Shown: piece after piece, positions 7,821 through 42,063 of the stretch
Position numbering within the stretch: position 1 is the first letter of the stretch
How the letters are laid out: each line of letters starts with the position of its first letter
Assembly: GCA_964620905.1 (NCBI GenBank)
Contig: CAZUKA010000001.1
Coordinates: 647,646-711,645 of the forward strand
DNA length: 64,000 nt
Direction of reading: 5' to 3'
Source: an uncultured Gammaproteobacteria bacterium
GTDB taxonomy: Bacteria > Patescibacteriota > Patescibacteriia > S139-126
Made by a program: the position numbers and the translations under genes
The notes under the pieces: model-generated
The model's database searches: none
What the model saw: only the letters and a program-made list of their open reading frames with translations
What the model was told of the DNA's origin: nothing

Positions 7821-7872
7821 TAAAAAAACATGCTACAATAATATAATAAGTATTAAGTTTTAATAAAAAATT

Positions 7873-8070: not shown

Positions 8071-8087
8071 ATAGATTACATTAAAAT

Positions 8088-10990: not shown

Positions 10991-10995
10991 TCTAG

Positions 10996-25640: not shown

Positions 25641-25797
25641 GGTTTTTAAATAAATATTTAAAGTCGGGTAATATTTAGCTTACCTGATATAATATTTTTT
25701 GACAAAACCTGGCCTGTTTTATTGATTTTTTGAGTTATTTTTGTTATAATAAACATATCATTTTATTAATTTAACGCCATTTTTTGGGGTTTTTTTT

Positions 25798-26514
25798 ATG
25801 TCAGGTCATTCCAAATGGGCAACAACCAAAAGACAAAAAGCAGTGGCTGATGCCAAAAAAGCCAATGCTTTTACCAAATTAGCCAATAGCTTAGCGGTGG
25901 CAGCCAAAGAAGGCGGAGCTGATCCGGATACAAATTTTAAACTTAAAATTGCCATTGACCGGGCCAAAGCCGCCAATATGCCAAAAAACAATATTGATCG
26001 TGCCATTGCTCGCGCAAGTGGTAAGTCAGATGATATTCAGCTAGAACAACTCACTTATGAAGGACTCGGGCCAGAAAAAATAGCTGTGATTATTGAAGCT
26101 ATCACTGACAATCGCAACCGAACGGTTTCCAATCTAAAACATGCTTTCAATAAACATGGCGGCCAACTAGCCAGCAACGGTTCCTTACTATGGATGTTTG
26201 ATCGGCGCGGTGTGATTGTCTGTACTTTAAAACCAGCCGCTTTAAACGAAGAACTACAACTTAAAATGATTGAGGGTGGAGCTGAAGATTGGGAACAACA
26301 TCAAGAAAAATTGATTATTTATTGCCAACCTAACAATTTACAATCCCTCAATAACCACTTACAAACTCTAAATTTAAATATCATTTCTAGTGAATTGGAA
26401 TATCTACCAAAAGAAACCATCCAAATAAAAGAAAAAGATAAATGGGATTCATTTCTGGCTGAATTAGAGCAAGATGACGATATACAAAATTATTACACTA
26501 ATGCCGATGGCTAA
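25798..26514 (+). CDS. yebC: YebC/PmpR family DNA-binding regulator
   Basis: MSGHSKWATTKRQKAVADAKK N-terminus. Confidence 0.85.
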   Translation: MSGHSKWATTKRQKAVADAKKANAFTKLANSLAVAAKEGGADPDTNFKLKIAIDRAKAANMPKNNIDRAIARASGKSDDIQLEQLTYEGLGPEKIAVIIEAITDNRNRTVSNLKHAFNKHGGQLASNGSLLWMFDRRGVIVCTLKPAALNEELQLKMIEGGAEDWEQHQEKLIIYCQPNNLQSLNNHLQTLNLNIISSELEYLPKETIQIKEKDKWDSFLAELEQDDDIQNYYTNADG

Positions 26515-27013
26515 AAACTTTACTATCATGGGAATTGATCCTGGTTATGGCTTGGTCGGCTATGGCTTAGTTCAAAAACAAAACGACCAACTGCTCTATC
26601 TTACTCATGGTGTAATTAAAACTAAGCCTAATTCTGACTTTACCGCTCGTCTACTTAAAATCCATTTGGAATTAAAAAAAATCATAAATCAATATCAACC
26701 ACAAATTTTGGCTATTGAAAGTTTATTTTTTCACAATAACGCCAAAACTGCTTTGCAAGTAGGTGAAGCTAGAGGGGTTATCATCCTTACTGCCAGTCAA
26801 GCAAATTTATCAGTCTATAATATTACTCCTTTGCAGGTCAAACAAGCTCTGGTCGGTCACGGTCGAGCAGAAAAAAAGCAAATCCAGAAAATGGTGCAGC
26901 TGGTTTTTAAACTACCAAAACTACCACAACCAGACGACGCGGCTGATGCTTTGGCAGTCGCTTATTGCGGAGCCCAATCATTAACCACCTGGCAATTAAA
27001 TGAAAAGTTATAA
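26501..27013 (+). CDS. ruvC: Holliday junction resolvase RuvC
   Basis: IMGIDPGYGLVGYGL (catalytic Asp) and C-terminal DDAADALAVAYC. The track ORF starts at 26474; MPMAKNF chosen as start. Confidence 0.8.
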   Translation: MPMAKNFTIMGIDPGYGLVGYGLVQKQNDQLLYLTHGVIKTKPNSDFTARLLKIHLELKKIINQYQPQILAIESLFFHNNAKTALQVGEARGVIILTASQANLSVYNITPLQVKQALVGHGRAEKKQIQKMVQLVFKLPKLPQPDDAADALAVAYCGAQSLTTWQLNEKL

Positions 27014-28493
27014 ATCCAAACTAAAAATCATCTCCGTTTGTAGTGAAGTTGACCCTTTTGCCAAAACTGGTGGTATGGCTGACGTGGCAAAATCACTCCC
27101 TAAAGCCTTAAAAAAACAAGGACATTTACTTCGTTTGTTTATGCCTTTTTATGCTCAGCTTAATCCCTCGGAACACAAATTAAAATTGGTAGCAGACAAA
27201 ATTAATTTAGACCTAGATGAAAGTAAAAGTGTCAATTTTTCCATTTGGCAGGGCTGGTTAGAAGATGGGCTACCTATATATTTCATTTACGAACCAGAAT
27301 TTTTATCTAAAACCTACGATGATAGAGTTAAAGATAACACTATCTATTTTGGTGTTCCTGATAATTTACGTTTTTTAATTTTTGATTTGGCGGTTATAGA
27401 AAGTATTAAAATATTGGATATTAAACCTGATATTATTCAGTGTCACGACTGGCAAACAGGGCTCATACCTTATTTTTTAAAAAAACGTTTTGCTTCAGAA
27501 GAAAGGTTTGATGGAACTGCGACCATTTTTACTATTCACAATCTAACCTATCAGCTAGGTACTAACTGGTGGGAAATACCATCAGAAAAACGTGATGACG
27601 AAAGACAAGAACTTCCCTTATTTCAAGATACTGTCTCATGGCAAAAAATAAATTTTGCCAAACGGGGTATCGCCAATGCCGATTCTATCAATACTGTTTC
27701 AGAAAAATATGCAGAGGAAATTATGACCAAAAAATTTGGCAATGGCCTGCATGGTATTTTAAAACAAAAAAAACATCGGGTGTTTGGTATAGTCAATGGG
27801 ATTGATTATGCTGACTGGAATCCTTCCACTGATCCGGGTTTAGTTGCTAAATACGATTTTGACTCGCTAGTCAATAAAACAAAAAATAAATTACACTTAC
27901 AAGAATTGTTCGGCCTACCTAAAGATCCCAAAGTACCTTTGGTTGGCTGGACTTCACGACTGACAGAACAAAAAGGTATTGAACTAATTATTGAAATCAT
28001 TGAACCGTTATTGAGAATGGATATTCAAATGGTAATTTTGGGTGAAGGAGCAAAAAAATATACAGATTTTTTTCAAAAAATCAGTCGCCAACATCCAAAA
28101 AAAATTGCTGCTATTTTAGATTTTGACAATCAAAAAGAAACTATGGTGCTGGCTGGGGCAGACATCTTTCTACTACCCTCTCGCTTTGAACCGTGTGGAC
28201 TGGCTCAGCTGAAAAGCTTGCGTTATGGAGCTATTCCAGTAGTACACGCAGTAGGTGGGTTGGTAGACACCATTTCTGATTACAATCCCAAAACCGGCCG
28301 AGGTAATGGTTTTGTTTTTAAAAAATATGATTCGCGCGACCTGTTAATTGCTATCACCCGTGCTATTGTCAATCACCGTCACCGGGAAAGCTGGTTAAAA
28401 CTAGTCAGGCAAGCCATGCAACAGTCGTTTTCCTGGGAAATTCCAGCCCAAAAATATACTATGCTTTTCCGTCGAGCTTTAAGAAATAAATAA
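27000..28493 (+). CDS. glgA: Glycogen/starch synthase (GT5)
   Basis: KTGGMADVAKSLPKAL N-terminal motif and the C-terminal EPCGLAQL motif. Confidence 0.85.
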   Translation: MKSYKSKLKIISVCSEVDPFAKTGGMADVAKSLPKALKKQGHLLRLFMPFYAQLNPSEHKLKLVADKINLDLDESKSVNFSIWQGWLEDGLPIYFIYEPEFLSKTYDDRVKDNTIYFGVPDNLRFLIFDLAVIESIKILDIKPDIIQCHDWQTGLIPYFLKKRFASEERFDGTATIFTIHNLTYQLGTNWWEIPSEKRDDERQELPLFQDTVSWQKINFAKRGIANADSINTVSEKYAEEIMTKKFGNGLHGILKQKKHRVFGIVNGIDYADWNPSTDPGLVAKYDFDSLVNKTKNKLHLQELFGLPKDPKVPLVGWTSRLTEQKGIELIIEIIEPLLRMDIQMVILGEGAKKYTDFFQKISRQHPKKIAAILDFDNQKETMVLAGADIFLLPSRFEPCGLAQLKSLRYGAIPVVHAVGGLVDTISDYNPKTGRGNGFVFKKYDSRDLLIAITRAIVNHRHRESWLKLVRQAMQQSFSWEIPAQKYTMLFRRALRNK

Positions 28494-28502
28494 AATTTTT
28501 TT

Positions 28503-29654
28503 ATGTATTTTTGGGTAAATTTTTTACACTTTTATTTACCACCTACTACTGAAAAACAACAACTAGACGAAGCCGTGCAAAAAAGCTATGAGTGGATTTT
28601 ATTGATGGCAGAAAAATATCCCGATTGGCATTTTACTCTAAACATAACCGGTTGCCTAACAGAAGCTCTACATAAATATGGTTATAAAAAAATAGTTGAT
28701 CGTTTTTATGCTCTCATACAACGCGGTCAATTGGAATTAGTTGATTCTTTATCACACCACCCTATTGCTCCTTTGATTGAGACAAATATTATTCAGAGAC
28801 AAATAGAACAACAGCAAAAAATAAATGAAAATTTTTATGCAACTAAGCGCATGGGCTTTTTCCTACCAGAAATGGCTTACAACGAAAATGTTGGCAGATT
28901 GCTTGCTAAACAGAATTATGATTGGTTGATTTTAGATGAAATAAATTTCAAAGGTAAACTAAACAAAGTTGATTGGCAAAAAGCATATATTTTAAAAAAT
29001 AGTAATTTAAAAATTATTTTTCGCTCACGCGCATGGTCACTTGATTATCCACCCAGAAAAATTGCCAAGACTTTAGCTAAACACGACTTACCAAAATATA
29101 TAATCACCGCCACTGATGCTGAATTATACGGATTGCGCTTCAATGATTTTGAAGGTTGGCTAGGTCGAATCTTGGAAAACCCTAAAATTAAAACTCTTAC
29201 GGTCAGTCAGTACCTTCAGAAGCTGGCAACTTATAAATATATAAAACCACGAGCTGCTAATTGGGAAAGTCTAGAATTAGAATTAAAAAATAAATTCAAT
29301 TTTAGTCTGTGGCACGGTCAAAAAAATAAAATTCATAATCTACTTTGGCAATTAGCAAATTTGGCAACTTTAGAAATAAAAAAACATCCTAACGATGTAA
29401 ATTTTGACTGGGCTGTTAAACATTTAGACAATGGCTTGGCTAGTTGTACTTTTTGGTGGGCATCAAATAGAGATTTTAAACTGTTTGGCGCCCCAGCTTG
29501 GCACCCTGAAGAAGTAGAAAAGGGGGCATTAGAATTAATTAAAACTATCCGAACTCTCCAAACTAATAAAAGCACAAAATTAAAAGCAGAAAAAATTTAC
29601 CACCAATTAAAATACTTATTGTGGACAACTCACTGGCAAAAATATGGTCAATAA
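28503..29654 (+). CDS. Glycoside hydrolase family 57 protein
   Basis: WVNFLHFYLPP, GQLELVDSLSHHPIAPLI and GFFLPEMAYNENVG (catalytic Glu region) match GH57 blocks. Confidence 0.6.
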   Translation: MYFWVNFLHFYLPPTTEKQQLDEAVQKSYEWILLMAEKYPDWHFTLNITGCLTEALHKYGYKKIVDRFYALIQRGQLELVDSLSHHPIAPLIETNIIQRQIEQQQKINENFYATKRMGFFLPEMAYNENVGRLLAKQNYDWLILDEINFKGKLNKVDWQKAYILKNSNLKIIFRSRAWSLDYPPRKIAKTLAKHDLPKYIITATDAELYGLRFNDFEGWLGRILENPKIKTLTVSQYLQKLATYKYIKPRAANWESLELELKNKFNFSLWHGQKNKIHNLLWQLANLATLEIKKHPNDVNFDWAVKHLDNGLASCTFWWASNRDFKLFGAPAWHPEEVEKGALELIKTIRTLQTNKSTKLKAEKIYHQLKYLLWTTHWQKYGQ

Positions 29655-31701
29655 ATTTTCTTCTCAAATAATAAACTCGACCCTCCAAACAGTATTGATT
29701 AAGTATAATTTAAAACCTGGCTACCTAATGAGCACCAGTGGGGAATTTTTGGTTATGACCCTTAATCGCGGTCAGCAAAAATTTATTATCAAAATAATAT
29801 TAAATAAATCAGTAGCCGCCCAAAAAAAATTCAAAAATGAAGTTGCTATTTTAAAATTTTTACAAAATGTAAAAATTAGAGGTTTACTTACTCCTAAAAT
29901 TTATATCGCCAACACCAAAGTTTCTCCAAGCTATCTAATTTACAATTATATCAATGGTTATCCGTTAAATGATTTTTATATAAGTATTGGCCAACGTCTG
30001 ACCGAGAAATTTTTAGCAACTGATTTTATAAAAATACTAAATAATTTACAAAAAATAAAAATCCCCAAAAAAATTTCTTTACAAAAAAATTATCCCGCTG
30101 CCAATTTAAAAATGTTTAATACCAATTTACCTTATCTAAAAAAATATTTTAACCAAATATTCATTAAAAAAATTTATAGTTTACTTAGATTAAGAAAAAA
30201 ATTTTTAAACAGTCAACCTTTAAAATTGACTCACGGGGACATTAATCCCAAAAACCTAGTGTTAGATCAAAAAAATTTAGCTATAATCGATTGGTCAGAA
30301 GTTCATTTAAATAATCCTTTATTTGATTTGAGTAATTTGTATTTATTTGCTTGGAATAGACCAAATATTAGAGAGGTAATTAGACAATTTATTCTCAATG
30401 AATGTTTACACCTAACTAATCCTTATCACTTATTCTTATTGAACCGATTAATTCTACTGCCACGAAATATTCGGATTATGGAAAATTCTTTGTCTGGTCT
30501 GGCTTTAGACAAAAAAAATAAAAAAATCTTGCCAATCACAGAAAAAAAATTAAAAAAGGTTGCCAACTTAGCCATTCAAAATTATTTAGCTGAAATTAAT
30601 TGGTTGGTTGAATATCTAGAACTATGGCAAAAACCAAAGTCAATCGCTAAAACAATCGAAAAACTTTATCATTTGCCCACGGCTATCGAGTTTATGTTTT
30701 CACACCAAAAAAAAATGGGCTTGGGTAATGACTGGCAACTTAAAAAAATAACTACTCATCGTCTTACAGTTCGACGTGGTGATCAAAAATTTATTGCTGA
30801 ATTTACTTTTCAAAAAAGGAAAAAAATAAAAACAATAATGGGTAAAATACGCATGGAAAGAAACGACGACTTAGCTAGACAGTCATACCAAATAATAAAA
30901 ACTATTTGGGAAATACCTGCTGGAAAAAAACTGATCAGTCGTCCTTTGTATTATTTTTCAAAGGACCATTTGTACGTTTATGAAAAAACCTTAGGCCAGT
31001 CTTTGACCAATTTTATTGAGATTAAAACCAATCAAAACCAACTTTCCTTGTCACCACTAATAAAAAAATCTGCCAAGATTATGTCGCGTTTACACCAACT
31101 TCCCATAAATCATTTTGCCAAAGTAAAATTTTATAATAACTATGATTTAAATCAACAACTTTATTGGCTCGAAAAAAATATTAAAAAAAATAAAAAATTT
31201 TTTTCCTCAAAAAATATCAATTTTTTAAATAATCTAAAAAAATTACATGAAGACATCTCCCAACAAAGAGCCAATAAACGATCCTTTATTCACGGTGATT
31301 ACCAACTACAAAATCTTATCTTAGATCACCTGCGTCTGCGTCTAATAGACTTTGATAACGCTGAAATAAATGATCCGTTAATTGACGTGGGAAATTTTCT
31401 CAATCAAATAAACTATAAAAATTTGCTTTATAAAAATTCTCACTACCTACGTACCCTTTTTTTAAAAACTTATCTAGATTTAACCAAACAAAAACTTGAT
31501 GATGTTTTAATTCTTTGTATAAATTTTTATATAATTATGGGAACGGTCAAAAATATAAATTTAAACTTTTTGGAAAATAAACCTGACTTAGTGACTTATG
31601 ATATAAAAAAAATCCAATATTTATATCGTCATTTAAAGATTAATCCTTTGGATAATTTACGAAACGTAAAAATAATATTGACCAAATCTCTAAAAAATTA
31701 A
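29644..31701 (+). CDS. Tandem APH/choline-kinase-like phosphotransferase (two kinase domains)
   Basis: LTHGDINPKNLVLD...IIDWSEV and FIHGDYQLQNLILD...LIDFDNAE: two HGDxxxxN catalytic loops plus D-x-x/E. Confidence 0.6.
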   Translation: MVNKFSSQIINSTLQTVLIKYNLKPGYLMSTSGEFLVMTLNRGQQKFIIKIILNKSVAAQKKFKNEVAILKFLQNVKIRGLLTPKIYIANTKVSPSYLIYNYINGYPLNDFYISIGQRLTEKFLATDFIKILNNLQKIKIPKKISLQKNYPAANLKMFNTNLPYLKKYFNQIFIKKIYSLLRLRKKFLNSQPLKLTHGDINPKNLVLDQKNLAIIDWSEVHLNNPLFDLSNLYLFAWNRPNIREVIRQFILNECLHLTNPYHLFLLNRLILLPRNIRIMENSLSGLALDKKNKKILPITEKKLKKVANLAIQNYLAEINWLVEYLELWQKPKSIAKTIEKLYHLPTAIEFMFSHQKKMGLGNDWQLKKITTHRLTVRRGDQKFIAEFTFQKRKKIKTIMGKIRMERNDDLARQSYQIIKTIWEIPAGKKLISRPLYYFSKDHLYVYEKTLGQSLTNFIEIKTNQNQLSLSPLIKKSAKIMSRLHQLPINHFAKVKFYNNYDLNQQLYWLEKNIKKNKKFFSSKNINFLNNLKKLHEDISQQRANKRSFIHGDYQLQNLILDHLRLRLIDFDNAEINDPLIDVGNFLNQINYKNLLYKNSHYLRTLFLKTYLDLTKQKLDDVLILCINFYIIMGTVKNINLNFLENKPDLVTYDIKKIQYLYRHLKINPLDNLRNVKIILTKSLKN

Positions 31702-31710
31702 TCTTAAAGA

Positions 31711-32658
31711 ATGGTAAAAAACTTAGCCTGGTTAAAAAATTTTCTTTTAAGAAAAAAATTATTAAAAAATTACAAAATCAATCCCTTGGCAGTTGGTAAT
31801 AATTACTACGTTTTTACTGCCTGTCGACAAAATAAAAAATATACCATTAGAGTCGGGAAATCAACTGCTCCGAAAATAAATTTAACTCGTCAATTTGTTT
31901 TTTTGAGTTATTTACAAAATAAAAATATAAATTTTGCACCGGCGCCGCTTTATTTTAATAAAAAATACAATTTATTTATCTGCCAATTTATCACTGGAAA
32001 AAATTTGGTTCAAAAAAAAATAAATAAAAAAATTTTATACCAACTGGCGACAAAATTGGCAACCCTTCATCGGCTGACTTATCAAGATTTTAAAAATTTT
32101 TGTCTTTCAAATACGTTACCAGTTTTTCAATCAGAAAAACCCTGGGAAAATATAAATATTTACGGTTGGAAAAGATTTAGATATATTAAACTTCACTGTC
32201 CAGAAAAAAATTTTGTAAAATGGATTGAACCAAAACTAGAAAAAAGTAGCGAAGAGATTAAAAAAATTCCTTTAAATAAATATTCTGTTATTTTAGATCA
32301 TGGTGATATTAGCCGGGCCAATATTTTGCTTTACAAAAATAAAATGACTTTTATTGATTGGGCCAATGTGCGCTTCTTATATAGTCTTGACCACAAATTA
32401 ACTTATTTGTTTGAACATGCCTTTTTTTCACCTACTGAACAAAAACAGTTTCTCGATTGTTATCTCAATTTACTTCCTTTTATAAAACCAACTAAGTTGG
32501 AAATGCTAATTAAAAAAGAGAGGGCGGCATTAAGAATAAGGGATGTTATTTGGAGCACTTACATGTATACTAAAAGTGTTATCAATAAATCGCCTGACTT
32601 TAAAAAATACAAAAAAATGACCTTAAGTAGAATTAAAAATTATGAAAAAAACCTCTAA
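31711..32658 (+). CDS. APH-like phosphotransferase (third kinase domain)
   Basis: VILDHGDISRANILLY...FIDWANV. Confidence 0.6.
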   Translation: MVKNLAWLKNFLLRKKLLKNYKINPLAVGNNYYVFTACRQNKKYTIRVGKSTAPKINLTRQFVFLSYLQNKNINFAPAPLYFNKKYNLFICQFITGKNLVQKKINKKILYQLATKLATLHRLTYQDFKNFCLSNTLPVFQSEKPWENINIYGWKRFRYIKLHCPEKNFVKWIEPKLEKSSEEIKKIPLNKYSVILDHGDISRANILLYKNKMTFIDWANVRFLYSLDHKLTYLFEHAFFSPTEQKQFLDCYLNLLPFIKPTKLEMLIKKERAALRIRDVIWSTYMYTKSVINKSPDFKKYKKMTLSRIKNYEKNL

Positions 32659-33415
32659 AAAAAATGTTATTATTACTGGTTCGGAAGGTTTAATTGGTAA
32701 AATTTTATGCCAAGGGTTAGTAAATTATAATCTCTATAAACTAGATAAAATTAAAAAAAACGGATCAAACTATTATCAAACTGATATCGCCAATAAACAG
32801 CAGTTATTGAAAGCTATCGAAAAAATAAAAACAAAAATTAATTGTATAGTCCACCTGGCAGCTGCAAGTGGAATTTATTCATCTTGGCAACAAATTCTAA
32901 AGAGCAATATAATTGGAACAAATAATATTTATGAAATCGCTAAAGAAAAAGATATAAAAAAAATAGTTTTCTTTAGTACCAATCATATTACTGGCGGATA
33001 TGAAGGTAACCCTCGTTCCTTACATCTAAAAAAGAAAAAAAACTTAATTACCACAAAACACGCGATGCGCCCTGACAGTTATTATGCGGTGAGTAAAATT
33101 TTTGGTGAAGCTTTGGCGCGTATGTATTATGAACAATATCAAATTTCTACTATTTGTTTGAGAATTGGAAATGTTATTACAAATGATGATCCGCGTGATT
33201 ATTCTCGTTCGGAAAGCATCTGGCTTAGCCACCGCGATTTAATTTGTTTAACTGACCGAGCTATTAAGGCAGCTGTGGGATTTGGAATATATTATGGTAT
33301 TTCCAATAATACCAAAAAAATTTGGGAGATTAATAATACTATCAAAGAACTAGGTTATAAACCAAAAGACAATGCGAGTAAAAAAATTAACTATCTAAAT
33401 AAACATGAGCAATAA
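32642..33415 (+). CDS. NAD-dependent epimerase/dehydratase (short SDR)
   Basis: Rossmann ITGSEGLIGKIL and catalytic YAVSK. Confidence 0.7.
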   Translation: MKKTSKKNVIITGSEGLIGKILCQGLVNYNLYKLDKIKKNGSNYYQTDIANKQQLLKAIEKIKTKINCIVHLAAASGIYSSWQQILKSNIIGTNNIYEIAKEKDIKKIVFFSTNHITGGYEGNPRSLHLKKKKNLITTKHAMRPDSYYAVSKIFGEALARMYYEQYQISTICLRIGNVITNDDPRDYSRSESIWLSHRDLICLTDRAIKAAVGFGIYYGISNNTKKIWEINNTIKELGYKPKDNASKKINYLNKHEQ

Positions 33416-34841
33416 AAAAATTAAAATTCTCTTAACCGCAGCTGAATGTACGCCGTTTGCTAAGGTTGGGGGTTTAGCTGATGTGATTGGGTCACTACCC
33501 AAAGAAATATATAAACGAAGGTATAAAATTGATGTTATTCTCCCTTTATATGGAAATATTGATACAAAATTTTTTGCTATTCATAATAATCATAAATATT
33601 TTTTTATAAATTTTTCTAACCAAAAAGAAAAAATTGAAATTTTTACCTCTTATTTACCAAAAAGCAAAGTGCGAATATTATTTTTAAAAAACAATAAATT
33701 TTTATCAACCAATGAAGTATATATCAACACCAGTGGTACAGAAAATCAAAAAAGGTTTACTTTTTTTTCACTAGCAGTAAAAGAATTTATTAAGCAATTA
33801 AAAAATAAAAATATAATTTTACATTGCCACGATTGGCACACGGGTTTACTTCCTTACTTAATAAAAAACGACCGAGAGACTAGATCAATCAAAACTATAT
33901 TTACCATTCACAATATCGCCAATCAAGGAATCTGGGATACAAGAGATGCACAAAAATTTGGCCTTGACTTTGCCAATCGGTTTGAAGAAAAAATAAATTT
34001 TATGGAAATAGGTATAACTTTTGCTGATCATGTTACCACTGTCAGCCAAACCTATGCCAAAGAAATTATGACCAAAAAATTTGGTTATAATCTAGCGCCA
34101 TTACTGCGACGACAACGACAAAAAGTAAGTGGCGTCTTAAATGGTATTGATACGGATGAATTTAATCCTCAAACTGATCGTTTGATTTACAAAAATTTTA
34201 ATGCCACCTACCTAAACAACAAAACTTTCAATAAGTTAAAACTTCAACAAGACTTTGGCTGGAAAAAAAATACTAAAACACCTTTACTAGGTGTGATATC
34301 ACGTTTGTTTGAACAAAAAGGATTAGATTGGTTGGCTCAAATTATGCCAAAAATCGCTCAACACAATATACAGCTTGTAGTTTTGGGAACTGGCGATAGA
34401 CAATTGGAAAAAACTTTTAAACAATTGGAAAAAATATATCCAAATAAACTCCGTGCAATTATAGATTTTCAACCAATATTAGCACAAAAAATATATGCGG
34501 CTAGTGATATATTTTTAGTTCCTTCCCGTTTTGAACCGTGCGGATTAACTCAAATGATAGCCATGCGCTATGGCACTGTGCCAATTGTCAGATCGACCGG
34601 AGGTTTAAAAGATACAGTAAAACAATACCAAAAAAACAAAAATAAAATTACTGGTACGGGTTTTGTTTTTAAACAAGAAAAACCCCAAGCTTTATACCTA
34701 GCAATTGTCAAAGCTCTAAAAGTGTACAATAATAAAAATAACTGGGGCAGTTTACAAAAAAACTGTATGCGGCAAGATTTTTCCTGGAAAAAGTCTGCCC
34801 AAGAATACATTGCTCTCTATAAACAACTAATAAAAGAATAG
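33405..34841 (+). CDS. Second glycogen-synthase-like GT5 glycosyltransferase
   Basis: KVGGLADVIGSLPKEI and EPCGLTQM; paralogue of the upstream glgA. Confidence 0.8.
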   Translation: MSNKKIKILLTAAECTPFAKVGGLADVIGSLPKEIYKRRYKIDVILPLYGNIDTKFFAIHNNHKYFFINFSNQKEKIEIFTSYLPKSKVRILFLKNNKFLSTNEVYINTSGTENQKRFTFFSLAVKEFIKQLKNKNIILHCHDWHTGLLPYLIKNDRETRSIKTIFTIHNIANQGIWDTRDAQKFGLDFANRFEEKINFMEIGITFADHVTTVSQTYAKEIMTKKFGYNLAPLLRRQRQKVSGVLNGIDTDEFNPQTDRLIYKNFNATYLNNKTFNKLKLQQDFGWKKNTKTPLLGVISRLFEQKGLDWLAQIMPKIAQHNIQLVVLGTGDRQLEKTFKQLEKIYPNKLRAIIDFQPILAQKIYAASDIFLVPSRFEPCGLTQMIAMRYGTVPIVRSTGGLKDTVKQYQKNKNKITGTGFVFKQEKPQALYLAIVKALKVYNNKNNWGSLQKNCMRQDFSWKKSAQEYIALYKQLIKE

Positions 34842-34847
34842 TCTGCC

Positions 34848-35783
34848 ATGCCAATTGTTTACGATCATAAAACTCAAATTAGAAAAGATTATTTTTTAGA
34901 TCGCTATGTCATCATTACCCCGGCTCGTACTAAACGTCCACGCGATATTACCGAAACTTCACACCGCGAACCGGGTCAAGCTTGCGTATTGTGTCCTAAT
35001 ACGTTAGAAAAAAATCTAATAACCGATCGTCTAGGCGGCAAAAAAAACTGGCAAGTTATTTCTATACTAAATAAATTTCCTGCCGTGGCTCTTTCCAATC
35101 CTCAAGCTTATGGTCAACAAGAAGTAGTGGTGGAAACGCCTATTCACGGCCGTGAACTGGGTGACATGAGTCACCAGGAAATTCTAAAAATTCTTGAAAT
35201 GTATCGTCGTCGCACAAAAAAATTAAGCTCTCTTAAAGACGTTGATTATATTTTAATATTCAAAAATATGGGTGGGCCGGCTGGTGCTTCTTTGTTGCAT
35301 GCCCACTCACAAATCTTTGCCAGCAAAAAAACTCCACCCGACGTTTTTCATGAACTAGATAAAGCCCAAGAATACAAAATAAGACACGGACGAAGTGTTT
35401 ATGAAGATATTATTAAAAAAGAACAAAAATCTCCTCGCTTTGTTTGGAGCGACAAAAATGTTTTGGTATTTTGTCCTTTTGCCTCCTTATATCACTACGA
35501 AGCTTGGATTTTTCCTTTTAAACGACGAGATAATATTACCGAGTTAACTAAAAGTGAACTTGGGTCTTTAGCCAAAGCTTTGAAACTAATTTTGGGTAGG
35601 CTTAATAAATTCAACATCCCTTATAATTTTTTTATGCATCAATCAATCCCTGATCAAGGGCAACACTTTTATATAAAAATCCAACCTCGCGAATCAATCT
35701 GGGCAGGACTAGAGCTAGGTGCCGGGTTAGTAATCAATTCTATTTCCCCCGAAGCAGCCGCCCGCTTTTACAAGAAAAAATAA
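34848..35783 (+). CDS. galT: GalT-family hexose-1-phosphate nucleotidyltransferase (HIT superfamily)
   Basis: Zn site CVLCPN and active-site HAHSQIF (HxHxQ). Confidence 0.7.
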   Translation: MPIVYDHKTQIRKDYFLDRYVIITPARTKRPRDITETSHREPGQACVLCPNTLEKNLITDRLGGKKNWQVISILNKFPAVALSNPQAYGQQEVVVETPIHGRELGDMSHQEILKILEMYRRRTKKLSSLKDVDYILIFKNMGGPAGASLLHAHSQIFASKKTPPDVFHELDKAQEYKIRHGRSVYEDIIKKEQKSPRFVWSDKNVLVFCPFASLYHYEAWIFPFKRRDNITELTKSELGSLAKALKLILGRLNKFNIPYNFFMHQSIPDQGQHFYIKIQPRESIWAGLELGAGLVINSISPEAAARFYKKK

Positions 35784-35812
35784 TACCGGACTGATATAAA
35801 AAACCTCTCTGT

Positions 35813-36385
35813 TTAGAGAGGTTTGTTTTTTTCAGCCAAAATCTTGAAGCTGTAGTTTATTATGCAGGAAATATTTAGAACTAAAGTTACTAAAATAAGT
35901 ATGGTGTTTATTTGTTGGTCAAATTCAAATAATCGACTGGGGTTGTTTTCACTTGTAGTATAATAAAAACCTATTAATACCAATAAAGCAATTAAAGAAA
36001 TTCGACCAAGGTGGTCAGAGGCAGGCAGATAATCTACGTATAAATGAGATAAGCATGCACCCACGGTGAGGATTGAAAAATAAGCAATTACCCACCAAAA
36101 AGCATAGGTTGGTACATAGTCATGGTAAGAAAATATAATTAAAGTACTGAAAAAAATCAACTTGTCTCTGATAGTATCTAAGAGTCGTCTGCTATAATTT
36201 TCTTCATCCAAAAGAACTGCTAACCCACCATCTAACAAATCAACCAATACCGACAGGGTTGACCACAAATAAAAATCAAATTTACCAACGGTTTTTAAAA
36301 CCAGTGGCCAAAGTAAAAACCCTAACAGGGTAATAGCCGTGGAAATATTCCAGGGCAACTTTCTTATTTCGCCAATCAAGCTCAT
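35813..36385 (-). CDS. CDP-alcohol phosphatidyltransferase-like membrane protein
   Basis: Multi-TM with DLLDGGLAV...RRLLDTIRD, resembling the D-G-x2-A-R...D-x3-D motif (imperfect). Confidence 0.45.
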   Translation of the reverse strand: MSLIGEIRKLPWNISTAITLLGFLLWPLVLKTVGKFDFYLWSTLSVLVDLLDGGLAVLLDEENYSRRLLDTIRDKLIFFSTLIIFSYHDYVPTYAFWWVIAYFSILTVGACLSHLYVDYLPASDHLGRISLIALLVLIGFYYTTSENNPSRLFEFDQQINTILILVTLVLNISCIINYSFKILAEKNKPL

Positions 36386-36442
36386 TTCGCCTCCGTAATC
36401 TGTTTTAAAGAACTATTAATTAATCAAAAATTATAACAAAAA

Positions 36443-36835
36443 TTAGTTATTTGTCAAGTGATTACGAGAGTGTGCAATAATAAATACACCAGCACCAATC
36501 ATGTCCATCAATAAATCACCCATAGTATCTTTGATACTAAGTTGTAAAAAATTTAGATGGAAAAAGGTAGAAATCGTTTGGTCCCAAACAAATTCCCCCA
36601 ACTCCCAAACCACACCAAAAAAACATAAGACACAAAATACAAAAAAATACCTTGCCAGGCGCTGAGAGATGAGATGTCCTAAAATATCATAAATAATATA
36701 GCTTAAAAGCGCCCCCGTGCCAACATGCATGATAATGTCATAATTGGGGAAAATTTGATACAAAAAAATTACGCCCAGTAGATGAAACCAGGCGATACCT
36801 ACTAAAATATAATAATGTTTTGTTTTTATTTTCAT
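36443..36835 (-). CDS. Integral membrane protein (130 aa), hypothetical
   Basis: Four TM helices; ATGA overlap with tyrS. Confidence 0.45.
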   Translation of the reverse strand: MKIKTKHYYILVGIAWFHLLGVIFLYQIFPNYDIIMHVGTGALLSYIIYDILGHLISQRLARYFFVFCVLCFFGVVWELGEFVWDQTISTFFHLNFLQLSIKDTMGDLLMDMIGAGVFIIAHSRNHLTNN

Positions 36836-38031
36836 TTAATTTTGACAAAGGTTTTTTTACCAATCTGAATTAAATCGTTGGTTTTAAACTCCACTAGATC
36901 ATAAAGGTTGGTTATTTTCTCGCCATTTAACTTAACTGCCCCTTGTGACAACAATCGCCTGGCTTCACTTTTTGACGGACAAAGTTTATTGTCTGTCAAA
37001 AAATCAGGCCAGTTGTATTTCTTGTTTTTTAAAACTATCTCAGGTACGTCTAGGGGTATTTGTTTATGGGAAAAAACACTAATAAAATTTTTTGCTGCAC
37101 TTTCGGCTTTAGATTCACTATGGTACATGGTCACTACTGCTTTGGCTAATTCTATTTTTAAATCTCTGGGGTTGCGTCCACTGGACAATTCTGTTTTAAC
37201 TCGTTTCAAGTCCGTTTGTTTATACCTAGCAACTAATTCAAAATAAGACAACAACAATTCATCTGGAATAGACATAATTTTACCAAACTGTTCAGCTGCC
37301 GGGTCAGCTAAACCAATACTATTGCCTAAAGACTGACTCATTTTCATCTTGCCATCAGTACCTAATAATAACGGTACGGCTACAATATCCTGTGGCGCCT
37401 GGTTGTTATCTGTCTGTAAATTTCTAGCTTGCAATTCATTGAATTTTTGGTCTAAACCAATTACCGTAACGTCGCTTTTTAGTTCCACCGAGTCCCAACC
37501 CTGTAGCATAGGATACACCGGTTCATGATAATATATTTCTTTATTTTGTGCTTGCCGTTTTTGAAACATATCTCTTTCCAACATCCTAGCTACAGTAAAC
37601 TTGGATAAAAGTTTCAAACCTTGCTCAAAACTCCACTTATCATACCAATTACTGTTATCACGGATTTCTACTTTGCTGATATCTAAAATTTTTCCCAATT
37701 GTTGTAAATAATTTTTAGCAAGCCCCAATACTTCTTTTTTAGCACGCAAATCACGAGCTTTTTCTTTGTCAGCCGGATCACCAAAACGACCAGTGAATCC
37801 GCCAATCAAAAAAATGACCTGGTGCCCTAACTCCTGAAATTCTCGCAACTTGTGATAAACTACGCCATAACCTAAATGTAAATCTTTTGTCGTCGGGTCA
37901 ACGCCGTGTTTAACGCGTAATTTTTTACCGGATAACAATTTCTTTTTTAAATCATTCTTAACCACTACCTCAGCTACGCCGGTTGTCAAGAGTTCGTCTA
38001 TTCTTTTTTCGTCGGTTATAATTTTAATCAT
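36832..38031 (-). CDS. tyrS: Tyrosyl-tRNA synthetase
   Basis: GVDPTTKDLHLGY (HIGH), KMSQSLGN (KMSKS), C-terminal S4 domain. The track ORF extends to 38103; MIKIITDEK chosen as start. Confidence 0.8.
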   Translation of the reverse strand: MIKIITDEKRIDELLTTGVAEVVVKNDLKKKLLSGKKLRVKHGVDPTTKDLHLGYGVVYHKLREFQELGHQVIFLIGGFTGRFGDPADKEKARDLRAKKEVLGLAKNYLQQLGKILDISKVEIRDNSNWYDKWSFEQGLKLLSKFTVARMLERDMFQKRQAQNKEIYYHEPVYPMLQGWDSVELKSDVTVIGLDQKFNELQARNLQTDNNQAPQDIVAVPLLLGTDGKMKMSQSLGNSIGLADPAAEQFGKIMSIPDELLLSYFELVARYKQTDLKRVKTELSSGRNPRDLKIELAKAVVTMYHSESKAESAAKNFISVFSHKQIPLDVPEIVLKNKKYNWPDFLTDNKLCPSKSEARRLLSQGAVKLNGEKITNLYDLVEFKTNDLIQIGKKTFVKIK

Positions 38032-38082
38032 ATTGAGTGCTTTTTTATTATATCTAAATATTGATATAATAAAAAGAGGTTT

Positions 38083-40659
38083 ATGAAAAACACCAACAAA
38101 CACAACTTATACTCCCCTAAAAACTGGCAACAAAGAAAAAAGGGTATTTCGCGAAGAGAAAATTGGCGCCAACTTCCGGCTTTTTTTAGGCGCAAAAAGT
38201 TTTGGCGCTGGTTGGGTTTACTTTTAGTTGGGGCGATTGCCACTGGGGCTGTCGCTTCAGTAGTGGTTTTTGCTTGGGTTTCCCGGAATTTACCTGAACC
38301 AGGAAAACTACAACAGAGATTACTTCCGGAAAGCACCAAAATTTACGATCGTACTGGTGAAAACATTCTTTATGAAATACACGGCGACCAAAAAAGAACC
38401 TTGATTAAATTAGCTGACATTCCCGCTAATACTGTCAATGCTTTTATTGCTCTGGAAGATAAAAATTTTTTTGAACACAAGGGTTTATCTATAAAACACA
38501 TTATTAAAGCGGTTGCCCTTTATGGTTTTAAAAAAGTTGGTCTATACAATGGTTTAGTACCCGGTGGTTCAACTCTTACTCAACAATTTGTTAAAAATTC
38601 TATTTTAACAAATGAAAAAACCGCCATTAGAAAAATGAAAGAGTGGATTTTATCTTATCAGATAGAAAAAAAATATAGCAAAGAAGAAATTCTGGAAATG
38701 TATTTTAATGAAATTCCTTTTGGTTCCACAGCTTATGGGATTGAATCGGCCGCCCAAACTTATTTTGGCAAATCTGTCAAAGAACTAAATTTGTCAGAAA
38801 GTGCTATCTTGGCAGCCATGATTCAGGCCCCCACTTATTATTCCCCTTACGGCAATCATGTGGATGAGCTACTGGCTAGACAAAAATTTGTTTTGCAAGA
38901 AATGCTGGACATGAAATTTATCACGCCAGAAGAAGCGACTACCGCTGAAGAAACAAAGGTAGAATTTAAAAGATCACTGGGTAACATTACTGCTCCCCAC
39001 TTTGTCTTATATGTTAAAGAACTGTTGACACAAAAGTTTGGCGAACGTTTAGTGGAACAAGGTGGCTTAAAAGTTTATACTACCTTGGATTTATACAAAC
39101 AAAACATAGCTGAAGAAGTCATCAAAGAACAAGCCGAAAAAAATGCCACTAGTTGGAATGCCCAAAACGCTGCTCTGGTCTCAATTGATCCAAAAAACGG
39201 TGAGGTACTAGCTATGGTTGGTTCTAAAAATTTTTATGATGAATCTATTGATGGTCAGGTCAATGTGACGTTGCGTCCACGCCAACCAGGCTCATCTTTT
39301 AAGCCTATTGTTTATACTGCTGCCTGGGAAAAGGGTTATGTGCCAGAAACCGTTCTCTATGATGTTATTACCAAATTTAAAACCGACATGGGTAAAGACT
39401 ATGAACCAAAAAATTATGACAGTAAAGAACACGGGCCGGTATCACTTCGACAAGCTTTACAGGGATCTTTGAACATTCCTGCTGTTAAAACTTTATACCT
39501 AGTGGGTGTTCAATCCGCATTAGACCTAGCAGAAAAAATGGGGTATACCACTTTTGCCAATCGCTCTCGTTTTGGTTTGTCTTTAGTTCTGGGTGGAGGT
39601 GAAGTAAAACTACTTGAACACACCGCTGCTTTTGGAGCGCTAGCACGGGAAGGAAAAAAAGCTGAAACTGTCACTATCCTAAAAATTCTTGATAAAGACG
39701 GCCAGGTTCTGTTTGCTCACGAGCCAACCGAACCACAACAGGTAGTTGAGCAAAAAGCAGCCCGGATTACCAATTATGTTTTAGCTGACGATGAGGCGCG
39801 ATCTTTTATTTTCGGTCGCGGTAGTCTACTAACTTTACCTGATCGACCAGTAGCCGCCAAAACTGGCACAACCAATGATTATCGCGATGCTTGGACGGTT
39901 GGTTATACCCCCTCTCTAGTTACCGGGGTTTGGGTTGGAAATAATGATTTTTCAGAAATGAAGCGCGGTGCCGATGGTTCGATTGTTGCTGCTCCAATTT
40001 GGCACAATTTTATGAAACGCGTATTACAAAATACGCCTGTTGAAAGTTTCAATCAACTAACATATGACCTTCCTTCAAAACCTATGCTCAATGGCACAAC
40101 TGGAGCGGAATCGAAAGTGGTTGTTGATTCGCTGAGTGGTCTGTTGGCAACCGAATTTACCCCTGAACATTTGCGGGTTGAAAAAATTTTTCGGGAGGTT
40201 CATAATATTCTCTTTTTTGTAGATAAAAATAATCCTTTAGGTCCAATACCGGGTAAAAATTCAGTAGATCCACAATTTGAATCTTGGGAGGAGGCGGTGT
40301 TACGCTGGGCTAAAGCAAACAACATAACCACAGCTGAACTACCCCCAACTGAATTTGATAACCTACACACTTTAGAAAATAAGCCGATCTTAGATTTATT
40401 GGAGCCCTGGCCCGAACAAAATGTTGATACTAACTTTGTGGTGCGTATTTTTTGGCAGACTAAACAACCCCTAAAAAAGATCGAGGTTTTTATTGATGAT
40501 CAATTACAAAAAACCGCTACCAATATAGTAACGGCCAATTGGCAAACCTCTGTCTCACTACCAAATAATAGCTCTAGCAATGAACATTACTTGAAAGTGA
40601 TTGTTTATGATATTTACGACAACTCAAATTTAGCTTGGGTAAAAATATACCAACAATAA
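38083..40659 (+). CDS. Class A penicillin-binding protein (PBP1A: glycosyltransferase plus transpeptidase)
   Basis: GT51 motif FIALEDKNFFEHKGL; transpeptidase SSFKP, SLN and KTGTT motifs; N-terminal TM. Confidence 0.85.
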   Translation: MKNTNKHNLYSPKNWQQRKKGISRRENWRQLPAFFRRKKFWRWLGLLLVGAIATGAVASVVVFAWVSRNLPEPGKLQQRLLPESTKIYDRTGENILYEIHGDQKRTLIKLADIPANTVNAFIALEDKNFFEHKGLSIKHIIKAVALYGFKKVGLYNGLVPGGSTLTQQFVKNSILTNEKTAIRKMKEWILSYQIEKKYSKEEILEMYFNEIPFGSTAYGIESAAQTYFGKSVKELNLSESAILAAMIQAPTYYSPYGNHVDELLARQKFVLQEMLDMKFITPEEATTAEETKVEFKRSLGNITAPHFVLYVKELLTQKFGERLVEQGGLKVYTTLDLYKQNIAEEVIKEQAEKNATSWNAQNAALVSIDPKNGEVLAMVGSKNFYDESIDGQVNVTLRPRQPGSSFKPIVYTAAWEKGYVPETVLYDVITKFKTDMGKDYEPKNYDSKEHGPVSLRQALQGSLNIPAVKTLYLVGVQSALDLAEKMGYTTFANRSRFGLSLVLGGGEVKLLEHTAAFGALAREGKKAETVTILKILDKDGQVLFAHEPTEPQQVVEQKAARITNYVLADDEARSFIFGRGSLLTLPDRPVAAKTGTTNDYRDAWTVGYTPSLVTGVWVGNNDFSEMKRGADGSIVAAPIWHNFMKRVLQNTPVESFNQLTYDLPSKPMLNGTTGAESKVVVDSLSGLLATEFTPEHLRVEKIFREVHNILFFVDKNNPLGPIPGKNSVDPQFESWEEAVLRWAKANNITTAELPPTEFDNLHTLENKPILDLLEPWPEQNVDTNFVVRIFWQTKQPLKKIEVFIDDQLQKTATNIVTANWQTSVSLPNNSSSNEHYLKVIVYDIYDNSNLAWVKIYQQ

Positions 40660-40735
40660 AATAATTTAATGGGCCCCGTGTGTTTTTTGGTCTGAAGCTA
40701 GTATTTTGTAGTAATTTGGGGGTTGATTAATCTTT

Positions 40736-41839: not shown

Positions 41840-42063
41840 ATATTTTTAATAAGTAGTATTAATAAGGGTTGTGTAAGGGGTGGAAAACTTTTTTTTCATT
41901 TTAAATATAAGCGAAAAAAATTTTATTTTTTTTAAAAACTATGTATAAAAAGAGCAAAAACTATTGACACAAAAAGTAAAAAATTTTTTTCTTGTTTTTA
42001 TCAACCAGATATTAAGAAGAAAACTTTTAATATAAGATAATTTATAAACAACTTATAAATAAA
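41840..42063. promoter_or_regulatory. AT-rich dnaA-dnaN intergenic region (candidate oriC/DUE segment)
   Basis: About 82% AT. Only degenerate DnaA-box-like 9-mers (GGTGGAAAA, TTATAAACA, TTATCAACC). Confidence 0.35.

Follow-up and report, generated by a model that had tools for sequence, protein, structure and literature searches.

An alpha-glucan gene cluster with a conserved GH57-linked APH-fold kinase in bacteria of the candidate phyla radiation

Results

Gene content of the cluster

A 64-kb stretch of contig CAZUKA010000001.1 (positions 647,646 to 711,645; hereafter the window, whose own numbering is used throughout) was analyzed. Between positions 27000 and 35783 the window carries seven open reading frames (ORFs), all on the plus strand and separated by gaps of −17 to +9 bp, as an earlier sequence-only reading of this DNA had placed them. 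They encode two glycosyltransferase family 5 (GT5) proteins, a glycoside hydrolase family 57 (GH57)-like protein, two proteins with kinase domains of the aminoglycoside phosphotransferase (APH) fold, a short-chain dehydrogenase/reductase (SDR) and a GalT-family protein. Comparison with related loci suggests that the cluster is the local form of an alpha-glucan operon widespread in the candidate phyla radiation (CPR), composed of glgA1, a GH57 gene, an APH kinase gene, usually glgA2, and swappable accessory genes. The gene order and family assignments of the sequence-only reading stand for both GT5 genes, the GH57 gene, the kinases and the GalT-family gene, and with two catalytically intact GT5 proteins, a GH57-like protein and APH-fold kinases its description of an alpha-glucan cluster stands as well; its ‘epimerase’ label was not upheld.

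The two GT5 glucosyltransferases are of the glycogen/starch-synthase type. The product of glgA1 (27000..28493; 497 amino acids, aa) scores 494.5 bits and that of glgA2 (33405..34841; 478 aa) 549.6 bits against the glgA model TIGR02095, whose cut-off is 328.45 bits; both score below the cut-off of every species-level equivalog model. The two proteins are 37% identical. The motifs KxGG(L/M), FEPCG (the catalytic Glu region) and GGLxDT are found in both paralogues and in 17 of 17 aligned orthologues. In glgA1, whose motifs are kept across eight orthologues, K-T-G-G-M is encoded at 27063-27077 and FEPCG at 28185-28199; in glgA2, KVGGL is encoded at 33462-33476, HCHDW at 33822-33836 and FEPCG at 34530-34544. 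With both scores above the cut-off and the catalytic motifs intact, two GT5 synthases are present as claimed.

The GH57-like protein (28503..29654; 383 aa) consists of the catalytic barrel only. The assignment to GH57 is sound: PF03065 is matched with 82.5 bits, compared to a gathering score of 21.2, and the five conserved regions, LHFY(L/Q)PP, GQLELV, LPEMAY, TDAELYG and SCTFWWAS, are intact and invariant in eight orthologues. The candidate nucleophile, E123 in LPEMAY, is encoded at 28869-28871 and the candidate acid/base, D205 in TDAELYG, at 29115-29117. The best PDB match of a profile of the family is 1k1w, the 4-alpha-glucanotransferase of Thermococcus litoralis (E = 5e-16), in a single contiguous barrel alignment of residues 5-268 with residues 4-284 of 1k1w. 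E123 and D205 align with 1k1w positions 123 and 214, which we take to be the nucleophile and the acid/base of the T. litoralis enzyme. The protein ends at 383 aa, without the C-terminal beta-sandwich domain of that 659-aa enzyme. Overall it appears to be 4-alpha-glucanotransferase-like.

A branching enzyme of the Thermus/Thermococcus type was considered and found no support. Such enzymes are defined by a length of ~520–560 aa, a C-terminal helical domain and a nucleophile that lies ~170 residues from the acid/base; the protein encoded here has 383 aa and an E-to-D spacing of 82. The branching-enzyme structures 1ufa, 3n8t and 5wu7 match the GH57 profile only in fragments, and NF041566 scores 29 bits against a cut-off of 920. 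The protein begins right at the first conserved region, with no N-terminal extension before the barrel, and since it is also limited to the barrel we read it as probably cytoplasmic. Surveys of the CAZy type tally CPR GH57 proteins as starch-degrading amylases (PMC9868632, PMC12153355). A secreted amylase role of this kind does not fit a cytoplasmic CPR GH57 protein well.

The next gene encodes a tandem kinase of 685 aa (kin2x, 29644..31701), in which PF01636 is matched in two stretches with 89 bits. Its first half is an APH-fold domain that we call N-type (29644..30648; HGDINPKN at 30232-30255) and its second half a C-type domain (30649..31701; HGDYQLQN at 31291-31314 and IDFD at 31345-31356). 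The HGDxxxxN motif and the downstream metal-binding (I)D are present in both halves and are invariant in 12 homologues. It is followed by a single-domain APH-fold protein of 315 aa (kin1x, 31711..32658), which appears as an accessory gene of the cluster; PF01636 scores 26.5 bits (cut-off 23.2), and the motifs HGDISRAN (32299-32322) and IDW are present.

Conservation of the cluster in CPR bacteria

Related loci were retrieved by three anchors, the tandem kinase, the GalT-like protein and the GH57-like protein, and the ORFs in them were classified by hidden Markov models built from the cluster's own proteins. In this way 80 metagenome loci and about 10 genome loci were compared, all belonging to CPR wherever a taxon was named. 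More than 341 GH57-like relatives exist in metagenomes, for which the 80 loci were retrieved; at 90% GH57 identity these represent 71 distinct loci and at 70% identity 41, so the counts that follow are only partly independent.

The genes around GH57 are tightly linked. glgA1 lies directly 5′ of GH57 in 64 of 66 loci, and an APH-fold kinase is the next gene after GH57 in 60 of 62 loci, with a median gap of 6 bp. A kinase is present in every locus with at least 4 kb of flank (40/40), and all 40 of these C-type kinases match PF01636. Of 31 loci, 26 have a second GT5 gene no more than 8 kb away from GH57, and galT follows glgA2 in 6 of 29. In other loci glgA2 is followed by genes that, by the look of the sequence alone, are smc-, comM- and ftsK-like, and several loci stop right after the kinase. 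The linkage counts and the loci that end after the kinase define glgA1-GH57-kinase as the minimal recurrent unit. The nine species-level loci retrieved with the tandem kinase have the order glgA1-GH57-kinase-[slot]-glgA2-galT. Adjacency of GH57 and kinase holds for GH57 proteins down to ~40% identity, while the genes 3′ of the kinase vary.

In some loci the two proteins are fused. A reading frame of locus L092, free of stop codons and of N, encodes a 741-aa in-frame fusion in which residues 2-388 are GH57 and residues 397-740 kinase, and proteins P0177 (735 aa) and P0178 (753 aa) each contain both Pfam domains. GH57-kinase fusions occur in at least two old lineages with a mutual identity of only 35% and recur in several assemblies made independently, HPT08493.1 and MAF24795.1 among them. 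Fusion together with adjacency in nearly all loci is a classic sign of consecutive steps or of a physical complex, which makes it very probable that the kinases are carbohydrate-related.

A variant arrangement was seen 3′ of yebC-ruvC in locus L011 (3846-11912), where a PKD/7TM-transglutaminase-like gene, a sugar-transfer-associated ATP-grasp gene, a GT4 gene, glgA2, an N-type kinase and galT follow one another. No GH57, glgA1 or C-type kinase gene was found in this variant locus.

Distribution and relatives of the kinase domains

The C-type domain is the part of the tandem kinase that is conserved CPR-wide and coupled to GH57. Single-domain C-type orthologues of 335–364 aa are encoded directly 3′ of GH57 in 55 loci and match the C-terminal half of the tandem protein. 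The N-type domain is a lineage-specific addition: outside the tandem proteins it was seen only in L011 and L140, where it forms a gene by itself. Among ~90 loci, the kin1x type is confined to the window and L003/L009 (31% identity). Three kinase domains are present, as noted in the sequence-only reading, but they consist of one conserved C-type domain and lineage-specific additions, and tandem and triple APH proteins recur in the family.

A word-indexed homology search lacked sensitivity for kinases so rich in AT and so rapidly evolving (12 and 17 hits) and was replaced by locus scans and by an exhaustive HMMER run against 1.84 billion representatives. The latter yielded 102 representatives of the family at E ≤ 1e-30 and 577 at E ≤ 1e-10, including ~14 tandem proteins. 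The tandem kinase has relatives in metagenome-assembled genomes (MAGs) of Ca. Paceibacter, Falkowbacteria and unclassified Patescibacteria, and other family members are labelled Kuenenbacteria or Patescibacteria group. In the source annotations they appear only as ‘phosphotransferase’, ‘aminoglycoside phosphotransferase family protein’, ‘thiamine kinase-like enzyme’ or ‘hypothetical protein’.

Several family members have unusual architectures. P0269 (1,054 aa, encoded on an ENA contig of 25,245 bp) contains three APH domains of the family in one polypeptide, and P0272 (910 aa) and P0280 (861 aa) contain two each plus extra sequence. In L010, a MAG contig of low coverage, two ORFs of 155 and 478 aa (7096-9116) stand in place of one tandem kinase gene, and glgA2 (~10005-11423) contains a run of masked or unknown residues; both probably reflect assembly error or a pseudogene.

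Relatives of known function were sought with single sequences, with a 12-sequence profile of the tandem kinase, with a 40-sequence profile of the C-type domain and with a Foldseek search of an AlphaFold2 (AF2) model of the C-type domain (predicted local distance difference test score, pLDDT, 87; predicted template modelling score, pTM, 0.79). The PDB relatives are APH(2″), APH(3′), macrolide, amicoumacin, spectinomycin and choline (LicA) kinases and the kinase domain of ACAD11, with 5-methylthioribose kinase as a weak relative; the best match of the N-type domain is the choline kinase LicA (4r77, E = 1.5e-6). Foldseek returned PsiK, corramycin kinase, APH(2″), LicA and MtnK at 11–19% identity. 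Its list is flat, with E values of ~1e-7, and its top matches are all small-molecule APH-fold kinases, with no protein kinases among them. Because the list is flat across APH-fold kinases, fold comparison does not single out a substrate.

The sequence-only reading had likened these kinases to the anomeric sugar kinases Mak and NahK and had proposed profile and structure comparisons with both. By the refuting condition that the reading itself had set, the analogy fails on homology, antibiotic (aminoglycoside, macrolide) and choline kinases being the closest among the matches listed. Neither Mak nor NahK occurs among the matches listed for single sequences, among the 30 PDB matches at E ≤ 1 of the tandem-kinase profile, among the 60 best of 68 matches at E ≤ 10 of the C-type profile, or in the Foldseek top 50. 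Homology this distant does not define the substrate of the kinase either way.

The variable slot and the SDR

The slot between the kinase and glgA2 varies by lineage. In the 40 loci with sufficient flank it holds a PHP phosphoesterase gene (18 loci), a gene for an S-adenosylmethionine (SAM)-dependent methyltransferase (10), a ~190-aa protein with a Walker-A motif (P-loop; 9), a GT4 glycosyltransferase (5), a GH100/GDE_C-like hydrolase (3), a polysaccharide pyruvyl transferase (3), a ROK kinase (2) and/or a RimK-type ATP-grasp protein (2, within the cluster of L141 and L143). The accessory genes of the slot appear to share a carbohydrate theme. The best family matches of the PHP protein are nucleotide-type phosphatases and lie far below cut-off. 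The combination that fills the slot in the window, kin1x plus the SDR, occurs in no other locus.

The ~190-aa slot protein, with the Walker-A motif LIFEGAELTGKS, is encoded at 12048-12629 of L001, at 7459-8034 of L004 and in many of loci L064-L143. No Pfam or PDB match was found for it, and there is only a weak dTMP-kinase match (E = 1.4e-3). The idea of a diverged methyltransferase or a kinase fragment was rejected, since the protein resembles neither the methyltransferase nor kin1x. Possibly it is a P-loop kinase of separate descent that fills the slot held by kin1x in the window.

The SDR gene (32642..33415; 257 aa) had been taken for a short NAD-epimerase. Epimerases of the GalE-like extended SDR type are defined by a length of ~310–340 aa, a C-terminal NDP-sugar-binding domain (NDP, nucleoside diphosphate) and a score above the galE cut-off; the product of this gene has 257 aa and reaches 36.8 bits against galE TIGR01179 (cut-off 262.3). 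Its full-length matches are instead to Udh/Azf-like enzymes, and it is best described as a short extended SDR of this kind. The Rossmann motif GSEGLIG is encoded at 32678-32698 and the catalytic YxxxK motif, YAVSK, at 33083-33097. The best PDB matches, both over the full length, are the uronate dehydrogenases 6mfh (2e-30) and 3rft (1e-27). The Azf model NF041293 aligns residues 7-246 of 257 with model positions 3-250 of 252 and scores 182 bits against a cut-off of 400, which makes the SDR, by sequence, only a family-level relative of Azf glucose-6-phosphate dehydrogenase. Udh and Azf enzymes oxidise pyranose C1, and the SDR itself probably oxidises a hexose derivative at C1 with NAD(P). No homologue was found in ~90 related loci (0 of 40 in the well-flanked set) and its 90% identity cluster has only three members, so it is specific to the lineage of the window.

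The GalT-like protein and the supply of NDP-glucose

The last gene of the cluster (34848..35783; 311 aa) lies 6 bp after glgA2, with which it shares a terminator, and encodes a class I GalT-family nucleotidyltransferase/phosphorylase of the HIT superfamily (GalP_UDP_transf, 54.7 bits). The Zn-site motif CVLC is encoded at 34983-34994 (aa 46-49) and the catalytic HAHSQ at 35298-35312 (aa 151-155). Full-length PDB matches are 1z84, the Arabidopsis ADP-glucose phosphorylase At5g18200 (8e-37), and 6k5z, the class I GalT of Pyrobaculum aerophilum (PaGalT; 7e-35). The protein falls below the galT equivalog cut-offs (TIGR00209, 86.3 against 102.1 bits; NF008724, 101.8 against 448 bits). These family signatures place it securely among the class I GalT-family HIT enzymes. 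It appears approximately equidistant from the ADP-glucose phosphorylase, to which it is marginally closer, and the true archaeal GalT, so that sequence comparison assigns neither a nucleotide nor an acceptor specificity.

GalT-like proteins form more than 1,483 clusters at E ≤ 1e-20, from CPR wherever the source names the organism, and identities among the 120 best listed exceed 50%. In the long contigs of four other lineages (L060-L063) the gene has no glgA or kinase neighbour (4/4). All cluster loci that contain galT abut the origin block (tyrS/PBP1 or yidC). This block, found in diverse CPR, has the order GalT-like → PBP1 (transglycosylase/transpeptidase) → dnaN ← dnaA; it is present in L060-L063 and in the window at 34848-43428, and in L060 (8001-14665) the gap between galT and PBP1 is only 4 bp.

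The GalT-like gene is co-transcribed with the cluster here because the cluster abuts this origin-proximal block. It appears to be a widespread CPR gene of fixed chromosomal position and, in comparison across loci, a positional neighbour. Given this fixed position, the lack of glgA or kinase neighbours in the other lineages and the small share of loci in which it follows glgA2, its proposed membership of the pathway is not supported. A Leloir or galacto-N-biose/lacto-N-biose (GNB-LNB)-like salvage module, which the sequence-only reading had assembled from kinase, GalT and epimerase, likewise dissolves on comparison: in the 40 well-flanked loci the SDR occurs in none, galT in six, and the kinase, found in all 40, is tied to GH57.

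Wherever the flank is long enough, galT accompanies the N-type domain, and in L011 the single N-type kinase directly after glgA2 overlaps galT by 14 bp. A functional pair of N-type kinase and galT was considered on these grounds and set aside: the co-occurrence is real and is confounded by position near the origin and drawn from ~3 lineages. We retain it as a minority alternative.

The cluster lacks glgC, as claimed, and so does the whole window. No signature or Pfam match of a sugar-1-phosphate nucleotidyltransferase and no lookalike of GlgC, GalU, phosphoglucomutase (PGM) or GlgP was found within the 64 kb. A regular-expression scan for GlgC/GalU-type signatures in 1.34 Mb of CPR loci gave only two ManC-like matches, and this near-absence is suggestive. 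The sequence-only reading had proposed that a kinase and a GalT-type transferase supply NDP-glucose in place of GlgC. A GalT-type transferase merely swaps hexose-1-phosphates on an existing NDP-hexose pool, and GlgA releases NDP. As the transferase only exchanges hexose-1-phosphates, it yields no net NDP-glucose, and the stoichiometry of the proposal fails for a pure transferase; only a phosphorylase reaction run in reverse could replace GlgC.

Transcription unit and genomic context

The seven genes are real, as proposed, and the unit that contains them probably extends further 5′ than the sequence-only reading had it. They are enclosed in a nine-gene unit running from yebC (25798-26514) and ruvC (26474-27013), both on the plus strand and identified by Pfam and NCBIfam, to galT. 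Since ruvC overlaps glgA1 by 14 bp and a promoter-like site lies 5′ of yebC, the unit probably begins at yebC/ruvC. The site, TTGATT-17-TATAAT with a TG element (25722..25750, plus strand), was found in a consensus scan and is a consensus match only; by this match it is the likely start of the transcription unit. The order yebC-ruvC-glgA1 is kept in almost all related loci. The unit most likely ends at a strong bidirectional hairpin terminator (35801..35824) with a 10-bp stem and T-runs on both strands, located between galT and a convergent gene for a CDP-alcohol phosphatidyltransferase.

The kinase and SDR genes (29644-33415) are AT-rich, with a GC content of 27–30% compared to 35% for the window and 36–39% for glgA1, galT and yebC. 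A recent transfer of the kinase genes was considered as a cause of this dip and not favoured, since GC at third codon positions (GC3) is similar across the operon (0.23–0.32) and the kinase is vertically conserved across CPR. The low GC content is read as probably that of AT-rich, fast-evolving coding sequence and not as an insertion. The cluster lies ~5–8 kb from dnaN/dnaA; the host is a small-genome CPR bacterium with the cluster proximal to the origin.

Three other features of the window were recorded. A full-length T-box leader (RF00230, 110 bits, E = 2e-25) lies on the minus strand at 14367-14628, with no aminoacyl-tRNA synthetase gene directly 3′ of it on the same strand. The next long minus-strand ORFs past it encode TsaD (11415-12455) and a valyl-tRNA synthetase (ValRS, 8106-10781), and a plus-strand ORF for a 522-aa purple-acid-phosphatase-like protein (12484-14052) lies between the T-box and these genes. 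Either an orphan T-box or one that acts at long range in this CPR genome may be at hand. A membrane H+-translocating pyrophosphatase is encoded on the minus strand at 3840-5801 (PF03030, 880 bits); it points to an energy economy based on pyrophosphate (PPi) and bears on the cost of PPi-releasing sugar activation of the GlgC type. Finally, NusB (residues 7-134) and NUDIX hydrolase (residues 178-280) domains are joined in one 292-aa plus-strand ORF (56851-57729).

Discussion

We propose that the cluster is an intracellular alpha-glucan operon in which the conserved kinase phosphorylates a small gluco-saccharide next to the GH57 step, a proposal to which we give about even chances. In this scheme GlgA1 and GlgA2 would, judging from family membership, polymerise alpha-1,4-glucan from NDP-glucose. 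The GH57 barrel, of the 4-alpha-glucanotransferase type, would cut or disproportionate the chains, and the C-type kinase would act directly before or after it on glucose, maltose or a short malto-oligosaccharide. In the direction that we prefer, GH57 would set a sugar free and the kinase would trap it in phosphorylated form; the pair would thus form a two-step of the MalQ+Glk or TreS-Mak kind, with the kinase standing in for hexokinase/glucokinase. In the lineage of the window, the conserved kinase has gained a fused N-type domain, and the slot holds a third APH kinase and a Udh/Azf-like dehydrogenase. All substrates, the position of phosphorylation and the direction of flux in the scheme are predictions. 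Hexokinase/glucokinase is reported to be almost universally lacking in CPR (PMC7304191), and the kinase may replace it.

Several observations weigh against this proposal. Among the matches listed, the kinase has no homology to a known glucokinase, maltokinase or NahK, and its nearest solved relatives, at the low identities given above, act on aminoglycosides, macrolides, choline, 4-hydroxy acids and methylthioribose, so that the choice of substrate follows from gene context alone. The PHP phosphoesterase gene directly after the kinase in about half of the loci fits the logic of a phosphorylated intermediate or of reversible glucan phosphorylation at least as well. The ROK-family kinases of a few loci would be odd if the APH kinase already were a glucokinase, and the GH57-like protein may instead act in branching or as an amylase.

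A carbohydrate kinase at this place is possible in two forms, namely a GH57 transferase with a kinase that replaces phosphorylase/hexokinase, or a GH57-based analogue of Mak-GlgE. In the second form the kinase would make maltose-1-phosphate or another alpha-glycosyl phosphate, the retaining GH57 enzyme would use it as donor and the GT5 enzymes would prime or supply in parallel. The fusions and the adjacency of GH57 and kinase mirror the TreS-Mak(Pep2) fusion or complex and the logic of Mak-GlgE, as set out in a survey of prokaryotic alpha-glucan enzymes (PMC11046441); Mak and the conserved kinase share the APH fold, and the GH57 catalytic pair is intact. Yet Mak is absent from the listed profile matches at E ≤ 10 and from the Foldseek top 50, no treS was seen in any locus, and the two GT5 synthases already provide a route of polymerisation. 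We also know of no GH57 enzyme that uses sugar phosphates, and consider a GlgE-like pathway unlikely. Reversible phosphorylation of glucan or oligosaccharide, in which the kinase acts on a non-anomeric hydroxyl, the PHP protein removes the phosphate and methyl or pyruvyl groups decorate what would be a modified alpha-glucan, appears improbable to a similar degree. It has precedents in GWD/PWD with SEX4/LSF2 in starch and, for decoration, in the mycobacterial methylglucose lipopolysaccharide (MGLP) cluster with its methyltransferase, GH57 and glucosyltransferase. The nearest solved relatives APH(2″) and APH(3′) act on ring hydroxyls of glycosides, and the slot holds the PHP gene directly after the kinase in 18 of 40 loci, a methyltransferase gene in 10 and a pyruvyl transferase gene in 3. 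Against it, the PHP and methyltransferase genes are absent from the window and many loci while the kinase is universal, no APH-fold kinases are known to act on polymers, and the matches of the PHP protein are to nucleotide-type phosphatases.

What remains viable of the GlgC bypass, in which the N-type kinase makes a hexose-1-phosphate that the GalT-like enzyme converts to NDP-glucose for GlgA1 and GlgA2, requires either an ADP-glucose phosphorylase working in reverse (glucose-1-phosphate + ADP → ADP-glucose + Pi, with ADP recycled by the synthase) or an exchange with a pool of UDP-hexose. Co-transcription of galT here, the ADP-glucose phosphorylase At5g18200 as its closest solved relative, the overlap of N-type kinase and galT in L011, the presence of galT in every sufficiently flanked N-type locus and the lack of a glgC-like signature in the window or in the 1.34 Mb of CPR loci all speak for it. 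On the other side stand the fixed origin-proximal position of the GalT-like gene, free of glgA or kinase neighbours in the other four lineages, and its occurrence after glgA2 only in loci that abut the origin (6 of 29, confounded by position and from ~3 lineages). A pure transferase would give no net NDP-glucose, and the phosphorylase equilibrium reportedly favours phosphorolysis (equilibrium constant, Keq, ~5–40), as McCoy et al. are said to have found in 2006. Similarity of the kinase to Mak or NahK is lacking among the listed matches, and in place of an ‘epimerase’ there is a dehydrogenase that only this lineage has. We regard such a bypass as quite unlikely. Very improbable, finally, is that the kinases have no part in glucan metabolism (being antibiotic, choline or lipid-head-group kinases, or protein kinases that regulate GlgA) and owe their placement to frozen synteny. 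Their best sequence and fold matches are indeed antibiotic and choline kinases, gene order around yebC-ruvC is generally conserved in CPR, and a CDP-alcohol phosphatidyltransferase gene adjoins the cluster. But frozen order accounts poorly for in-frame fusion to GH57 in at least two lineages so far diverged, and for adjacency in 60 of 62 loci with overlaps or near-zero gaps while the genes 3′ of the kinase vary; the fold matches, moreover, are small-molecule and not protein kinases.

A more inclusive version of our proposal, that a new CPR carbohydrate kinase forms one unit with GH57 at the entry or exit between glucan and sugar phosphate and that the lineage of the window adds a fused kinase domain and a reversible GalT-like ADP-glucose phosphorylase, giving an ADP-recycling supply independent of GlgC, seems to us rather unlikely as a whole.

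CPR/Patescibacteria make up a large share of bacterial diversity, and sugar activation and storage in them are poorly understood. The common GH57 protein of CPR emerges as a minimal, probably cytoplasmic enzyme whose gene is locked in one operon with genes of the glycogen-synthase type and with a kinase family of its own. These kinases are a concrete, cloneable candidate for the missing sugar-phosphorylation step, and the GH57-kinase pair is possibly a new kinase-dependent branch of alpha-glucan metabolism. Two tempting misannotations, the ‘epimerase’ and GalT as part of the pathway, are corrected. A near-universal GalT-family enzyme encoded beside the peptidoglycan synthase PBP1 is a further feature of CPR.

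Among known systems, the classical GlgC-GlgA-GlgB (GlgP/GlgX) operon resembles the CPR cluster in its GT5 enzyme with KxGGL, FEPCG and GGLxDT motifs, in the alpha-glucan-active enzyme encoded beside it and in its cytoplasmic location. In contrast to that operon, the CPR cluster has two diverged GT5 proteins and a short glucanotransferase-type GH57 protein, no GlgC, GH13-type GlgB, GlgP or GlgX is encoded in the cluster or the window, and the obligatory APH-fold kinase is without counterpart. The actinobacterial TreS-Mak(Pep2) and GlgE system also couples or fuses an APH-fold kinase to an alpha-glucan-active glycoside hydrolase (PMC11046441); the CPR partner is GH57 and not GH13, no similarity to Mak was detected, and treS and glgE are lacking. 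In the text consulted of this 2024 Chemical Reviews article, maltokinase is the sole pathway kinase named and CPR are not mentioned (PMC11046441).

The CPR GH57 protein resembles the T. litoralis enzyme 1k1w in all five conserved regions and in the spacing of its catalytic Glu and Asp (82 residues, 91 in 1k1w), and differs from that 659-aa protein in its length of 383 aa, lacking the C-terminal beta-sandwich. The logic of the proposed pair is that of Escherichia coli MalQ+Glk, where a transferase frees a small sugar and a kinase captures it; unlike there, the CPR kinase is of the APH fold and not ROK/Glk, and no maltodextrin phosphorylase was seen. With the Leloir and GNB-LNB pathways (GalK/NahK, GalT, GalE) the cluster shares, in this lineage, a kinase and a GalT-family HIT enzyme in one unit, whereas a GalE-type epimerase, similarity to NahK or GalK and galactoside-related genes are lacking and the pairing of kinase and GalT is not kept across the range of the cluster. 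The GalT-like protein aligns over its full length with At5g18200 (1z84) and the P. aerophilum class I GalT (6k5z), sharing the Zn-site CxxC and HxHxQ, and differs from true GalT in scoring below the TIGR00209 cut-off. The SDR aligns in the same way with Udh (3rft/6mfh) and haloarchaeal Azf, with the Rossmann GxxGxxG and catalytic YxxxK motifs; unlike Azf, it scores below the equivalog cut-off (182 against 400 bits) and belongs to the cluster of this lineage only. A literature search on the cluster, on GH57 in CPR and on glgC in Patescibacteria gave no account of a GH57-APH kinase cluster. All components fall into known families, and as a whole the cluster varies the plan of glycogen-type operons; no paper was found that describes the obligatory, sometimes fused pair of GH57 and APH kinase or its distribution in CPR.

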